Below are positions 13,330-18,880 of a stretch of DNA of 18,880 nucleotides, in pieces. The DNA comes from a virus (lineage: Duplodnaviria > Heunggongvirae > Uroviricota > Caudoviricetes): the IMG/VR virus record IMGVR_UViG_2740892422_000003, positions 1-18,880 of that record; one strand, 5' to 3'. Numbering within the stretch: position 1 is the stretch's first letter; every line of letters starts with the position of its first letter. The translations under genes and the position numbers were made by a program. Under the pieces are notes generated by a model. It saw only the letters and a list, made by a program, of their open reading frames with translations, did no database searches and was not told where the DNA came from.

Positions 13330-15222
13330 ATGGCACTTTCCCCCGCGCAGCGTCACAGCCAGCGCATTGCGATGGAACAAAAGCTGAAACGCAGCCAGGC
13401 ACTGGAAACCACGGAAAGTATGCACCTGCTGATCAGGGCGTTGGAAACAGATGTGGAACACGTTCGAAGTCTGCCTACCATCGCCGATCGCGTCGAGTAT
13501 AAACGCGATGTGCTGTTAATGATGAAACCAGTAAAACGCCTTTACCTTTCAACGGATGAAGTTCACCTGGTGGATGCCAGCCTGGTACTGGAGCTGAACA
13601 GCTGCGGCCGGGGCTTCATCACCGCAGAGACAACAACCGATTACACCGGAAAACTGGTGCGGCTGGATGTGGGGTATACCGATCTGCTTTTGCGCTGGTT
13701 TACGGGGTATGTGGAGCGATCACAGCCCGCAGAAAACGGTTTTCAGCGTCTGTTCATTCGTGAGCTGGCAGGTGTGTTTGAAAGGATGTGGCCGTGTTCG
13801 TTTCAACACCCGACTTTGCGAGAAATTGCGGGCTGGCTGGAAGAAAACAGCGGGATCACAGTCAGTGTGCCTGATGCACAGTACAGCGATACCCCCATCC
13901 CACATTTTACCCATAACGGTACTGGTTATCAGTTGCTGAACAATCTGGGCAGGGCGTTCAGTATCCAGGATTACATCTGGTACCAGTTGCCTGATGGTTC
14001 GCTTTACGTCGGCGGCGCAGAAAAATCATTGTTTGCCGGTCGTCCCGTAGAAATCCCGTCAGAGTTCAGCCAGGGGGCTGCTGGCGGTAACTCTGTGACA
14101 TTACCAGTGATCCAGACTATGCGGCCAGGGGTGGAGATGAACGGTGAACGCGTGACTAAAGTTCACCTGACGAATGACACGATGGCGATCACATGGACGC
14201 CGAGAAACCGCGCAACGGGTAAACCTTTGCAGAAAACACCGGCGCAACGGCAGATTGAAAGCCATTACCCGGAACTGGCATCCGGGCTTCATTTGCCAAA
14301 GATGGCCAGAGTCGTGGCGCATTCAGAGCCAGTAAAAAGCGGTAACTTTGCCGATCCCTTCCGGCCACGTTACGCAGTGGACGTGCAGCTGCTTGACGCA
14401 GACGGAAACCCGGACAATCAGACGCCTGTTTACTCAGCGGTGCCGCTGCCGGTGCCAATGGCCGGGAATGATTCAGGTATGTTTCAGTTCCCGCCAGAAG
14501 GGACGCTGGTTGAGGTTGCATTCACGGGAGGCAGACCGGATAAACCCTTTATCAGGCAGACGCTGCCGGATGGTACCAGCCTGCCGGACGTTAAACCCGG
14601 TGAGCAATTGCAGCAGCAGCGGGAAGAAGTTTCCCAGCGGGTGACTCAGGCAGGAGACTGGGTAAGACAGACCGATCAGACCATCAGTGAAACATCGATG
14701 GTGCGAACGGTAAAGGCCGATACGGAACAGCGCGAACTGGTCAGCCGTGAAACCACGGTGAAAGCCACGGATAAAACTACGGTACTGGGAACCGCCACAC
14801 TGCTGGCCGGAGCTATTCAGCAGGTAAGCGCCGGTGATTATAGCCAGGCGGTGAAAGGTAACAGACTGGCCAGTATTGAAGGAAACGAAGAAACGGACAT
14901 AGCAGGACAGCAGTCCACTAAAGTGGGCGGTGCTGTAGCCGTGGAGGTTGGCGAAAGCCTGACAGAGAAAATTGCCGCACTGCGTAAATCAGTGGCCGCT
15001 GGCGGTCAGCAGGTCATGGGGGCAACTGTCCATATTGGCAGTGAGAGTATCAACGCCCTGACCATGATGCTGGATACCATTGATTTACTGGCAGATCTGG
15101 CGCAGCAATGCGCGAGCCATTCGCACCCCACCGTTGGGACGCCAACCAATGCCGCCGCGTTCACACAGACGGCGACGAAAGCCGGGCAGACCCGGAGCAA
15201 GTACCAGGGGATCATTGCTTAA
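13330..15222 (+). CDS. Chimeric 630-aa protein: small-terminase-like N-terminus (gpM-like) joined to a baseplate central-spike-like C-terminus (gpV/gp5/VgrG-like OB fold plus His-containing apex)
   Basis: Starts 4 nt after the capsid gene stop, with GGAGGG upstream. The N-terminus MALSPAQRHSQRIAMEQ resembles the start of P2 gpM (MTSPAQRH..., from memory). The C-terminal half has an OB-fold spike signature (FQFPPEGTLVEVAFTGGRPDKPFI), a repetitive T/V/K-rich segment (TVKADTEQRELVSRETTVKATDKTTVLGTA) and an HxH element near the end (CASHSHPTVGTP). Confidence 0.6.
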   Translation: MALSPAQRHSQRIAMEQKLKRSQALETTESMHLLIRALETDVEHVRSLPTIADRVEYKRDVLLMMKPVKRLYLSTDEVHLVDASLVLELNSCGRGFITAETTTDYTGKLVRLDVGYTDLLLRWFTGYVERSQPAENGFQRLFIRELAGVFERMWPCSFQHPTLREIAGWLEENSGITVSVPDAQYSDTPIPHFTHNGTGYQLLNNLGRAFSIQDYIWYQLPDGSLYVGGAEKSLFAGRPVEIPSEFSQGAAGGNSVTLPVIQTMRPGVEMNGERVTKVHLTNDTMAITWTPRNRATGKPLQKTPAQRQIESHYPELASGLHLPKMARVVAHSEPVKSGNFADPFRPRYAVDVQLLDADGNPDNQTPVYSAVPLPVPMAGNDSGMFQFPPEGTLVEVAFTGGRPDKPFIRQTLPDGTSLPDVKPGEQLQQQREEVSQRVTQAGDWVRQTDQTISETSMVRTVKADTEQRELVSRETTVKATDKTTVLGTATLLAGAIQQVSAGDYSQAVKGNRLASIEGNEETDIAGQQSTKVGGAVAVEVGESLTEKIAALRKSVAAGGQQVMGATVHIGSESINALTMMLDTIDLLADLAQQCASHSHPTVGTPTNAAAFTQTATKAGQTRSKYQGIIA

Positions 15223-15319
15223 TGCTGGTATTCATGTGATAAGTTGAGACGTTCTGGACTTCCTGATGGCTGTAGCTCTGTTGTTGGGTAGCCCAGAAAA
15301 ATTCGAAATAAAATGGGTA

Positions 15320-15874
15320 TCAAGTAGTGGTAATTGTATGGCTTTTGCGGGTTATATAAACGCTATTGGCGGGTACGTCTCTGTTAACGAATGACATTGC
15401 GCCAATTGTCACGTTATCACCAATGGTTAGATCATCACCGATGATGCACGAATTTGCACCAATCTCCACATTGTCTCCGATCCTGATGGCTTTGATTCCC
15501 TCAACCGTTTTTAATCCAATTGTTGTGTTTTGTCGGATACGCACATTCTTACCAATCACAGCCTGGGGGCAAATGACTATTCCAACGAAATGATAAATTT
15601 TGAATTTTTCCCCTATCTGTGCCCCCAACCCAATATCAGTATTGTATTTTGAAACAAGTCTCCTATGGATTCTTCGCGCCCATTTCACTCTTGCTCTCCC
15701 ACCCTGGCAGTAAAGGCAATTCGCTATTCTCCACCAACACATGAACCTGTATCCGGGCTGTCTCCAGCAACGTAGTATGATTCTTCTCCATGAGAATTTT
15801 TTACTGTTGCTCAGTATGTCCGCGCACAATAACTGCTTCATTTCCTCGTAGTGAGATATTTTGCTGCTGCTCAT
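15320..15874 (-). CDS. Hexapeptide-repeat (left-handed beta-helix) acetyltransferase, WcaB/CysE-like sugar O-acetyltransferase family
   Basis: Tandem hexapeptide repeats (IGKNVRIRQNTTIGLKTVEGIKAIRIGDNVEIGANSCIIGDDLTIGDNVTIGAMSFV) and an N-terminal region similar in pattern to WcaB-type acetyltransferases. Lower GC than the phage core. Start is ambiguous (ATG at 15874 or 15841; the track ORF begins with TTG at 15889). Confidence 0.8.
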   Translation of the reverse strand: MSSSKISHYEEMKQLLCADILSNSKKFSWRRIILRCWRQPGYRFMCWWRIANCLYCQGGRARVKWARRIHRRLVSKYNTDIGLGAQIGEKFKIYHFVGIVICPQAVIGKNVRIRQNTTIGLKTVEGIKAIRIGDNVEIGANSCIIGDDLTIGDNVTIGAMSFVNRDVPANSVYITRKSHTITTT

Positions 15875-16661
15875 AAATTGTCCGTCCAAATAATCCTGAC
15901 GGTTATCGTAACATGGGAATGGTCTGATTTTCTGCTAACAGCACAACACTAGGCTATGTGGTTCGGTCTGATAGTGGGCTTCTTCATCCAAAATGATTTA
16001 GTTGGGTTACCAACACAAATCTATTTCTCACATCGTCATAGGCGTCACCAGACGCATTTTAAACCCTTTAGTAACAAACCCTACCCCGCGCACCAAGTGT
16101 AAAAGATCCGAAGCGTGGCGTGGCGCTGGTAGGGTCATATGATGGCGAAATAAATCTTTCGCAGACAAAAACGGCGCTACACCGCACCCGCCTGCGGTTT
16201 CTGGATCTGGAAATTTTTTCAGTTTTATTTTTCTACAAACCAGACCGCCAGACCGCACCATTACTGGCGGCTTTGCAGATAATCAGAACTGAAATGATTG
16301 AAAAGAATTTCAGTGTTTTTCACTTTCATGGATCTGTGGAGGATCGAATACAAAATGTAACCAGCAGAAAAATAAGGGGAAATAATTTTTTTGTGAGTGG
16401 GAAGGATCGTTTTTGTTTTCTGGTTGTTTTCGTCGTAGAAAAGCCGAGGCCAGATTTAGCAAGGCATAGGGACAATTAGAAGGTTCATAGAAAACTGAAA
16501 AAACTGCATGCATGTCGTGGAAACTAGCGAGCTAACAATTGCATCGAAATCTAATTTTAATCTTGGAACTTGAGAAAACTTTTGTCAAATTAGTTGTCGC
16601 TTTTTAGTTGTGGATATCCTTCCGATGTTTACTTGGCAGAGCTTACATTAAGGCATTCGAT

Positions 16662-17780
16662 ATGACTGAAAAATTCACCGCAATTTTGTTAGATACGAGT
16701 ATCTACGATCAGTACGGATTAAAGCTTGAGAAAGGACTGCTGGGTAAGCTTTCCCAGTTCAGCAGAACCCCGACAACGTTTTTGATACCGGATGTAATTT
16801 ACAATGAAGTTAAAAATCATCTTGAAAGAAAAATCAAGACATCACGTGGCTCCCTTGAGAAAGCTTTCGAAGAAGCTGGCGATCATCTTTTTTTTGATGG
16901 AAGCGAACTAAATGATGCAAGAAAAACATTGATTGAAAGCAGAGAAGTTGAAGGATTAGGAAAGAGCAGATTAGACAGATTTGTTGGCGTAACAGATGCG
17001 AAGGTTCTAACTACAGGGGATTATGTTTCGGTACCTGAACTCCTTGAACGATACTTCTCTTCTGAAGCTCCTTTCGCAGATACAGGTAAGAAAAAAAATG
17101 AGTTTCCCGATGCAATAACATTAATGGCCGTCCAAGCCTGGGCTAAAGAGAATGGTGAAAATGTTCTTGCTGTAGCAAGAGATGACGACTGGCAGAGATT
17201 TTGTATTGATGCTGAGAATTTGCACTATGAACCTGACTTATCAAACGCTTTAGCACACTTCAATGAAGAAACCGCACCTTATGAACTAATTGATAACTTA
17301 CAAAAAGCACTTGCTGAAGGACAAGCCGGTAAATTCTTGCATGATGTTGCTGTACACCTTGAGTCAACCTTTGAAGGATTTGCACCAGAACAAGAGGCAG
17401 ATTCATATTTATACTGGGAGGCTGACGGATGCTCAGGTGGATTTGAAGATTTTGAGTTTACAGATAACCACTTCACTGTCATCGACAAGGATGAAAACTG
17501 GGTTGTTATAGAAGCATTTGCAGACATTTCACTTTACGCAGAAGGTGATTTCTCCCTATCGGTTTACGATTCATTCGACAAAGACCATGCTTACATGGGG
17601 TCAATTACCAAGCGAGCCGAGGAAACATATACATCCAGAATACTTATCACAATCTCCGGAGACTTATCAGGTTCTATAGATGATTTGACCGTTGACGATG
17701 TGGAAGTGATCGAGCGTCCAACGTCGATGGATTTTGGGGAGCTTGAATTAGAGTATGAGCCTGACGAGCAAGACTTGTAA
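16662..17780 (+). CDS. PIN-like domain protein with a strongly acidic C-terminal region (372 aa)
   Basis: Start at the ATG (MTEKFTAILLDTSIYDQYG) preceded by TAAGG. The N-terminus has a PIN-like acidic signature (ILLDTSIY; later EFPDAITLMAV, ARDDDW). The C-terminal roughly 150 aa are very D/E-rich (EADGCSGGFEDFEFTDNHF...DDLTVDDVEVIERPTSMDFGELELEYEPDEQDL). Low GC. Confidence 0.65.
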   Translation: MTEKFTAILLDTSIYDQYGLKLEKGLLGKLSQFSRTPTTFLIPDVIYNEVKNHLERKIKTSRGSLEKAFEEAGDHLFFDGSELNDARKTLIESREVEGLGKSRLDRFVGVTDAKVLTTGDYVSVPELLERYFSSEAPFADTGKKKNEFPDAITLMAVQAWAKENGENVLAVARDDDWQRFCIDAENLHYEPDLSNALAHFNEETAPYELIDNLQKALAEGQAGKFLHDVAVHLESTFEGFAPEQEADSYLYWEADGCSGGFEDFEFTDNHFTVIDKDENWVVIEAFADISLYAEGDFSLSVYDSFDKDHAYMGSITKRAEETYTSRILITISGDLSGSIDDLTVDDVEVIERPTSMDFGELELEYEPDEQDL

Positions 17781-17884
17781 CAACTATGATTAGGCACTAT
17801 CGCTGTCGCCATTTTGTCGCCAACTCGATTGCAGTTTCGTTGTAACTAATTGAATTTAATCTTTTTTATTTTCAGGCAACAAAA

Positions 17885-17915
17885 AACCCATCATCTTTAG
17901 AGCATGATGGGTTTA
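17885..17915. terminator. Bidirectional rho-independent terminator between convergent cargo genes
   Basis: AAAAAA, then stem CCCATCAT, a 9-nt loop, stem ATGATGGG, then TTTA, at about 17881-17915 between the PIN-like gene (ends 17780) and the convergent HEPN-like gene (ends 17924). Confidence 0.6.
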
Positions 17916-17923
17916 TAACTTGC

Positions 17924-18733
17924 TTATTCTTTTTTTTCATCCCACGATTCAAGAATAAACATAGTTAGTGTATGTGCAGCATTGATGGCTAATCGTGCGT
18001 GTCGGGGCTTGAGATTGTAAATTTTTCGTCCTGCGCCATGAGCTGAACTCGCATGAGTTCTTAGCGAGCCGATACCATCGGTGAGAGAATATAAGCCGCT
18101 CAAAATGCGTTTTAAGTCCTCATCTTCTACCGCTTTAGTGTCAAGACCTAAATGTTCACGAACGGTCTTCCACAAGCCCTGCAAATCCTGCTTCGCAGGA
18201 ATCGGTAGGTTTTCATCTGCGATAAAAATTTTAAATGTTGATTCTAATATATTACAGGCTGCTGATACTGCTTCTCTTGGGTCAGTATGCAAGTTTTCTA
18301 AAGCTCTTGCGAATTCCATTTCTACTGCTGGAGTATTACGTTTCTGGATAGCTTCTTTCAAGGAAAGGGATGCTAGTGATGCTCCATCAGTAATGTAACC
18401 GCCAGTCACATAGTTCAGCCCATAACGACCAAGTAGTTCCGGCATTTTTTTAACAAACTCGACTTTCTTTTTTTCCCACTCATAGTATGGATTGGCGGGT
18501 AACTCTGACTCCATATAGGTTTCGATTAAGCGACCAAGTAAAACTAATGGTTCATCAGATTCTTTATTAATACGCCTTAACCATTCGAGAGCTTTAACGT
18601 GCTTAGATCCTTCGGGTGGTTCCCCTGGCGCATCAGCATAGGCAAACAAACTATCCAAACTAGCATGGGTTTCAGTGCTAGCAACGAAGTCAGCTACAAC
18701 AGATATTACAGGTTGAGGTATTGGCCGTCCCAT
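17924..18733 (-). CDS. HEPN-like / abortive-infection (Abi_C-like) protein (269 aa)
   Basis: The C-terminal segment GSLRTHASSAHGAGRK fits the HEPN R-x(4-6)-H motif found in Abi_C-type domains, followed by NAAHTLTMFIL. Low GC. Lies next to the right att repeat. Confidence 0.6.
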   Translation of the reverse strand: MGRPIPQPVISVVADFVASTETHASLDSLFAYADAPGEPPEGSKHVKALEWLRRINKESDEPLVLLGRLIETYMESELPANPYYEWEKKKVEFVKKMPELLGRYGLNYVTGGYITDGASLASLSLKEAIQKRNTPAVEMEFARALENLHTDPREAVSAACNILESTFKIFIADENLPIPAKQDLQGLWKTVREHLGLDTKAVEDEDLKRILSGLYSLTDGIGSLRTHASSAHGAGRKIYNLKPRHARLAINAAHTLTMFILESWDEKKE

Positions 18734-18830
18734 ATCTACTCCATCAGCGGGTCAATTTTGAACTTAGTGGACGCAAAGTGGACATTGCATAAAAAAAGGG
18801 ACTACGTTTTCACGTAACCCCTTGTTTTAA

Positions 18831-18880
18831 TTGGTGGAGCTGGCGGGAGTTGAACCCGCGTCCGAAATTCCTACATCCTC
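18831..18880 (-). repeat. ssrA: Right att direct repeat: 3' end of ssrA (tmRNA), probably the end of the intact gene whose body lies beyond the window
   Basis: Identical to bases 1-50. The reverse complement is the tmRNA 3' tRNA-like end with CCA. For a minus-strand ssrA the gene body would lie at coordinates above 18880. Confidence 0.85.

Follow-up and report, generated by a model that had tools for sequence, protein, structure and literature searches.

The window analysed here, i.e. the whole stretch of 18,880 nucleotides, is a defective P2-like prophage of E. coli (Peduoviridae, Quadragintavirus), about 95% identical to Escherichia phage ESSI2_ev040. It comprises, in this order, a gene for a 337-aa protein, int, the repressor, the early genes, A, an ogr-like gene, Q, P, O, N, a fusion ORF, a cargo islet and the 3' end of the tmRNA gene. 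The fusion ORF (13330..15222, + strand), which is the last gene of the tail module, joins in-frame 63 aa of a small terminase (phrog_74) to 567 aa of a baseplate/spike protein (phrog_2258). This chimera was made by a deletion of ~13 kb, with which the remaining head-completion, lysis and tail genes have gone, and on account of that loss the prophage is considered defective. The low-GC cargo islet extends from the tail module to att (15235..18831; 38–45% GC versus 52–57% in the phage backbone) and holds the acetyltransferase gene that is the subject of this analysis (15320..15874, - strand) together with three further ORFs: a 119-aa ORF (16120-16479, + strand), a PIN_12 gene of 390 aa (16608-17780, + strand) with no match in PADLOC or PHROG, and an Abi_C/AbiJ-like gene (17924-18733, - strand; PADLOC AbiJ, E 9e-17). 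The att site of the prophage is the 3' end of ssrA, encoding tmRNA (18832..18880, - strand; Rfam RF00023, 53.4 bits), which is cut by the edge of the window; in sister loci smpB is found beyond ssrA. The earlier note, made from the sequence alone, had described the acetyltransferase gene as prophage cargo situated outside any polysaccharide gene cluster, and both statements hold: the gene occupies a stretch of 42–45% GC that separates the last tail gene from the 3' end of ssrA, it is also carried by ESSI2_ev040 (gp41, 97.8% aa identity), and the window contains no polysaccharide gene cluster.

Some other parts of the prophage may be described briefly. The PIN_12 and Abi_C/AbiJ-like genes adjoin each other and are possible anti-phage genes. 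The 337-aa gene (130-1143; GC ~28–31%, phrog_17460), directly downstream of int, represents a further uncharacterised cargo at the opposite end of the prophage from the acetyltransferase; it has no PADLOC match, and the same gene in a sister locus is without a recorded Pfam match. The segment that holds the 119-aa ORF (16148-16600) recurs in 52 complete E. coli genomes, where its nucleotide sequence is conserved at 80–91% identity and mostly unannotated. In a related Enterobacter remnant a segment of this type stands on the other side of the acetyltransferase gene, which implies that the latter was inserted independently.

The acetyltransferase ORF is intact and encodes 184 aa, with its ATG start codon at 15872-15874 and its TGA stop codon at 15320-15322; a longer ORF could be called from a TTG at 15889, and the homologues begin at the ATG. 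The gene is convergent with the chimeric tail ORF. In the spacer between the two (15223..15319) no terminator hairpin is predicted, and this sequence folds no better than its shuffled versions (z-score -0.09). The gene's own promoter is presumed to lie in the upstream intergenic region (15875..16119); a scan of both flanking spacers for promoters and terminators returned none, and no consensus sigma-70 site was found in 15875-16119.

The encoded protein exhibits ~14 hexads in register starting from residue 81 and a match to the Pfam Hexapep family (PF00132) well above the gathering cut-off (47.1 bits versus 27, E 1.5e-12), a combination that places it in the left-handed beta-helix (LbH) acyltransferase superfamily. 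The beta-helix, predicted to make ~14 hexapeptide turns, spans residues 81–176 (15347..15634, - strand). The top NCBIfam models are EpsC (87.5 bits), CysE (72.8 bits) and WcaB (69.3 bits), and the best sequence matches in the PDB are serine acetyltransferases (SATs; E 1e-14). Judged from these matches, the protein is an LbH enzyme of the SAT/WcaB branch, and the description given in the earlier note, a WcaB/CysE-like left-handed beta-helix acetyltransferase, was right. The beta-helix is preceded by an N-terminal helical domain (residues 1–77; 15644..15874, - strand; pI 10.7, 18 Lys and Arg residues, 5 Trp residues), which bears two motifs of the family, F27-S-W29 and W47-W48-R49-I-A51, and gives no Pfam match to SATase_N. 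The whole protein has a pI of 10.0 and no transmembrane segment (the 19-residue hydropathy peaks at 1.27). An AF2 model built from a 36-sequence alignment reached a mean pLDDT of 72, with ~90 in the N-terminal helices and mostly <60 in the beta-helix; a Foldseek search of the PDB with this model, in which the beta-helix is poorly modelled, yielded nothing significant (best E 0.58, SATs at the top).

Conservation was computed over 119 family sequences, in which H95, G108, Q115, N116, T118, G120, G133, C143, G152 and G158 are invariant. In the alignment with CysE and WcaB, both taken from E. coli K-12, His95 (codon 15590..15592, - strand) corresponds to His158 of CysE and is predicted to be the catalytic base, while Asp80 (codon 15635-15637, - strand) corresponds to CysE Asp143; position 80 is Asp or Glu in the family, and the acetyltransferase retains the catalytic dyad of CysE (His158-Asp143). 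The neighbourhood of the acceptor is of a different kind. In SAT structures serine or cysteine is bound by Asp92, Asp157, Arg192 and His193 (E. coli CysE numbering). According to the alignment, Asp157 is replaced by Tyr94 in the acetyltransferase, Arg192/His193 are replaced by Lys128/Ala129, and the Asp92-Pro93 segment is missing; across the phrog_2154-type family sequences the serine-binding positions vary. The loop that replaces the Arg192/His193 serine-binding loop (residues 123–131; 15482..15508, - strand) is hypervariable, with a column entropy of 3.2–3.7 bits save for the conserved Ile130 (1.1 bits), whereas the core positions stay below 0.3 bits; position 94 is similarly hypervariable (~3–3.7 bits). 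Residues 123–131 are predicted to form the acceptor-specificity loop.

These observations bear directly on whether the protein is what its database name, 'serine acetyltransferase', says, i.e. a true CysE-type serine O-acetyltransferase, which would act as an auxiliary metabolic gene boosting or deregulating cysteine synthesis. Apart from the name, the PDB matches to SATs and the conserved His/Asp pair speak for it. On the other hand, the serine-binding residues have been lost, as in WcaB, and the protein scores far below every curated equivalog cut-off, those of CysE (TIGR01172: 72.8 vs 210.65 bits, PRK11132: 49.5 vs 397), WcaB (69.3 vs 196 and 67.2 vs 194.65 bits) and EpsC (NF041874: 87.5 vs 150 bits); we conclude that the name does not fit and that the enzyme is no genuine serine acetyltransferase. 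It also lacks the extended C-terminal tail with a final Ile that binds CysK, its own sequence ending in KSHTITTT, and the missing SATase_N match, the hypervariable acceptor loop and the basic pI (10, against 6.1 in CysE) point in the same direction. A role in cysteine synthesis is thus very unlikely.

Overall, the similarity to CysE consists in the LbH fold with its His/Asp dyad and in the PDB matches, and the differences comprise the serine-binding residues, the long N-terminal domain and the C-terminal tail, all lacking here, and the charge. The resemblance to WcaB is closer (~31% identity, compared with 22–26% to CysE and 20–23% to WcaF and WbbJ): WcaB too is short, combines a SAT-like N-terminal helical domain with the LbH, keeps the catalytic His, misses the serine-binding residues and is basic. 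It is annotated in the pathway that acetylates undecaprenyl-PP (Und-PP)-linked colanic-acid intermediates. The acetyltransferase differs from it in residing in a prophage islet rather than in the wca cluster, in the N-domain signature FSW...FWWRIA, in falling into a separate clade and in scoring far below the cut-offs of the WcaB models. The basic character is a family trait (pI 9.4–10.4; N-domain pI 10–11.9, with 16–23 Lys and Arg residues and 3–5 Trp residues, one truncated sequence excepted), shared with WcaB, WcaF and WbbJ (pI 8.9–9.5), the LbH acetyltransferases of the colanic-acid and O-antigen clusters of K-12, whose substrates are lipid-linked sugars. This likeness, including the Trp/Arg-rich N-domain, is counted in favour of the reading preferred below.

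The earlier note had offered a xenobiotic acetyltransferase as an alternative, and this suggestion finds no support. Xenobiotic or antibiotic acetyltransferases of the Vat/CatB type do have the LbH fold in common with the protein studied here and likewise use acetyl-CoA; however, there is no Vat/CatB family among the best 25 of 34 NCBIfam matches and no xenobiotic acetyltransferase structure among the 51 PDB sequence matches, the N-terminal helical domain is of the SAT type, and the genes of the family are found in phage tail-module and LPS-cluster contexts. The probability of this alternative is close to negligible.

The acetyltransferase is a member of phrog_2154 (E 3.1e-59), with residues 7–183 aligned to positions 4–180 of the 185 positions of the profile, i.e. 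over the full length. More than 1000 homologues were retrieved at E <= 1e-5, and those with a named source are mostly 'serine acetyltransferases' of Enterobacterales. Our literature search found neither a functional study of the phrog_2154 family nor a reported substrate for any member; the homologue in Citrobacter phage phiNP has been listed as a 'fitness' cargo gene on the basis of prediction alone (PMC6456863). The phrog_2154 genes of phiNP, yong2, the ESSI2 phages and JL22 are of the same kind as the acetyltransferase gene and likewise stand beside tail-fibre-assembly genes; in phiNP, Hafnia phage yong2, E. coli phage 613R2, the P1-like JL22 and two Edwardsiella prophages the family gene is convergent with the tail-fibre-assembly gene. 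A virulent S. thermophilus phage carries a relative (32% identity), located after the upper-baseplate gene.

This linkage to tail-fibre genes is directly observed on a larger scale in IMG/VR, where relatives were collected from 160 contigs. Of 74 loci, 58 have a convergent gene on the downstream side, and the 64 distinct downstream neighbours include 30 tail-fibre-assembly proteins (Caudo_TAP), 2 tail fibres, 3 MptE-like proteins (DUF115-type, with a weak Pfam match) and 2 HtrL_YibB proteins, while the upstream neighbours are mixed, HicB (9 loci) and tail sheath or GpU (6 loci) being among them. The position statistics are based on the 53 contigs with a length of 20 kb or more: 34 of these have the family gene within 5 kb of a contig end, and the median relative position is 0.17. 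As a general moron hotspot exists downstream of tail-fibre genes, the linkage could be a matter of position and not of function. The pairing with the MptE-like gene is found both in phages and in chromosomes, since the acetyltransferase and the MptE-like gene form a two-gene unit in three IMG/VR loci as well as in chromosomal LPS clusters of Leminorella and Halomonas; at two loci HtrL_YibB takes the place of the MptE-like protein.

Several peculiar arrangements were also noted. In JL22 the family gene lies between two convergent tail-fibre-assembly genes beside the cin invertase (cin-S-U-SAT, followed by convergent tfa-stf); the idea that the family gene resides inside an invertible tail-fibre segment was set aside as anecdotal, as the related 97-kb contigs are without cin-S-U. 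One 45-kb IMG/VR contig carries two copies of the family gene, one towards either end, and tandem paralogues occur in Buttiauxella. A genome from Pseudomonas has the family domain inside a 665-aa ORF, which could be a fusion or an artefact of ORF calling. In Edwardsiella, an identical family gene has a MOSC-domain gene on one side and, on the other, the arn operon (for lipid A aminoarabinose) or the tail end of one or other of two different prophages; integration seems to have recurred at this site, on whose edge the acetyltransferase lies.

Full-length relatives (39–54% identity) encoded in bacterial chromosomes were examined in 40 species-representative genomes of Enterobacterales, Pseudomonas, Halomonas, Vitreoscilla and Orbaceae. 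Pfam statistics of their neighbours revealed no dominant partner across these 40 genomes, most of the adjacent genes being unrelated housekeeping genes. BLAST comparison with proteins of P2- and Mu-like phages identified phage genes at 2 or 3 of the 40 loci; with so few, the family is evidently not exclusively prophage-borne. Approximately 8–10 of the loci have an LPS or glycan context, Leminorella being the only case from Enterobacterales. There, the genes for a GT8 protein, WaaY, the MptE-like protein and the acetyltransferase are tightly spaced and convergent with WaaL. In two Pseudomonas genomes the acetyltransferase follows WaaL, the two genes being 3 bp apart in the first genome and overlapping by 4 bp in the second; in three Pseudomonas/Halopseudomonas genomes the order is msbA-kinase-acetyltransferase, with pseI/pseH/pseG adjoining in at least two; Halomonas exhibits aminotransferase-MptE-like-acetyltransferase, and one further Pseudomonas genome GT2-acetyltransferase. 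The members from LPS-core clusters show 39–46% identity to the prophage acetyltransferase and up to 57–64% to phage members. In a neighbour-joining tree calculated without support values, the chromosomal members are intermixed with the phage alleles in a clade apart from both WcaB and CysE.

The identical acetyltransferase protein was found in 92 indexed blocks from public draft assemblies. At loci with the identical protein the acetyltransferase gene always abuts the tail module and the att-proximal cargo changes (Abi_C plus PIN_12, or FRG plus small ORFs); at sister loci the flanking host sequence matches E. coli with 100% identity, and the prophage was also found at a second integration site. 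Within the lineage, the swapped cargoes are Abi_C, PIN_12 and the 119-aa ORF; a 103-aa ORF, an FRG-domain ORF and a 75-aa ORF; PIN only; or an AAA ATPase with a divergent acetyltransferase allele. The att-proximal region resembles a small hotspot for defence or cargo genes beside ssrA or ybjL. The sister prophage of strain LR-51 is without the acetyltransferase gene, and the sister prophages AHB29 and ESSI2_ev015 have an allele of 42% identity at another place within the islet; this absence and allele exchange, along with the variable cargo, indicate that the acetyltransferase gene is a mobile moron.

Could the gene be a functionless relic of a decaying prophage? The prophage has been deprived of ~13 kb of essential genes, and a nucleotide search of 5426 complete E. 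coli genomes found no match of this allele. Against this stand the intact ORF with every family-invariant residue in place and the inducible phage relative that carries the gene at 97.8% identity; the identical protein recurs in many assemblies, although this was an exact-sequence look-up and so is no measure of selection. For the same reason, the fact that several prophages with independent deletions have kept the gene was rejected as an argument for selection. On balance, decay to a relic is highly improbable.

Or perhaps the acetyltransferase is a generic cargo of a moron hotspot, acting on an intracellular substrate (a metabolite or a macromolecule of the phage or host), possibly in anti-phage defence with or like its neighbours (PIN_12, Abi_C, FRG, HicAB)? 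The variable, low-GC, att-proximal islet and the AbiJ-like, PIN_12, FRG, AAA-ATPase or HicAB neighbours would fit this explanation, and so would the exchange of alleles among sister prophages, which is typical of defence hotspots. However, no PADLOC-DB v2 family matches the acetyltransferase at E <= 0.01, the gene stays constant while the defence-like genes vary and is encoded on the strand opposite to them, and there is no conserved partner gene in this prophage lineage. The relatives in waa/waaL operons and the pairing with MptE-like or HtrL-like genes favour a glycan substrate instead. An intracellular or defensive role hence appears rather unlikely.

We lean, with a little more than even confidence, towards a third possibility, namely that the acetyltransferase is a cytoplasmic enzyme, peripheral to the membrane, that O-acetylates an LPS-related glycan and thereby causes lysogenic conversion or masks a phage receptor. 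The glycan substrate is suggested by three results concerning context, i.e. the tail-fibre-assembly neighbours, the relatives in waa/waaL operons and the pairing with MptE-like or HtrL-like genes, and the hypervariable acceptor loop beside an invariant catalytic core is counted on the same side. The enzyme would be soluble, acetyl-CoA-dependent and probably trimeric, associated peripherally with the membrane, and would employ His95 as the general base together with Asp80. Its likeliest substrate would be LPS-related, either the core oligosaccharide attached to lipid A or a unit linked to undecaprenyl-PP, acetylated while it is being assembled at the inner membrane face. As a moron expressed by the prophage, the enzyme would alter an LPS epitope or receptor of the lysogen, resulting in lysogenic conversion and in masking against phages that use LPS, e.g. 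myoviruses of the P2, Mu and P1 types. The receptor of P2, Mu and P1 is the LPS core, which fits the types of phages that carry the phrog_2154 family. Several points count against this reading: the core oligosaccharide of E. coli is not known to be O-acetylated; the neighbours of the acetyltransferase in the window are defence-like (PIN_12, Abi_C) rather than glycan genes; most of the chromosomal contexts are uninformative; and the possible hotspot effect, the poor beta-helix model, the negative promoter and terminator scan and the tree without support values weigh on the same side. As to the assembly step, the core oligosaccharide is built at the cytoplasmic face, and the core O-acetyltransferases of Pseudomonas are yet to be identified (PMC8005017). 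The proposal of the earlier note, that the gene modifies a surface polysaccharide, is thus retained in its general form, being backed by the tail-fibre linkage, the waaL-operon relatives, the lost serine site and the basic character; its specific targets, O-antigen or capsule, are less favoured by the context than LPS or a glycan linked to the LPS core.

By analogy, the best functional counterpart of, and precedent for, the proposed role is NeuO from prophage CUS-3 of E. coli K1, a soluble LbH O-acetyltransferase that alters a surface polysaccharide, polysialic acid (PMC3046976). NeuO is absent from the 51 PDB sequence matches (E <= 1e-3), which puts it in a different branch of the LbH enzymes from the acetyltransferase. 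The neuO gene has heptanucleotide phase-variation repeats, to which there is no counterpart here: no phase-variation or tandem repeat was found within the acetyltransferase gene or upstream of it. The role proposed here is also that of the membrane acyltransferase-3 O-antigen acetylases of serotype-converting phages (Oac of Sf6, OafA, GtrC family II), and these share the genomic niche of the acetyltransferase gene, with tail spike or fibre genes on one side and att/int on the other. They are, however, polytopic membrane proteins that act after export, while the acetyltransferase has no transmembrane segment and an unrelated fold.

A broader proposal, put forward tentatively and as possible rather than probable, is that phrog_2154 constitutes a widespread group of soluble LbH O-acetyltransferases that mask receptors by modifying the LPS core (or a core-linked glycan) on behalf of temperate myoviruses of the P2, Mu and P1 types, in which their genes would mark the end of the tail-fibre module, that they are kin of putative waaL-adjacent core O-acetyltransferases of Pseudomonas and other genera, and that the name 'serine acetyltransferase' is wrong for more than 1000 proteins. 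If the inference about LPS is mistaken, the acetyltransferase becomes another uncharacterised moron. If it is true, a very common prophage 'serine acetyltransferase' would turn out to be a soluble, LPS-modifying enzyme of lysogenic conversion, unlike the membrane-bound Oac, OafA and Gtr proteins. Phage host range, susceptibility to phage therapy and serology would then be affected in Enterobacterales, and the chromosomal relatives would provide candidate genes for the unassigned O-acetylation of the LPS core in Pseudomonas.
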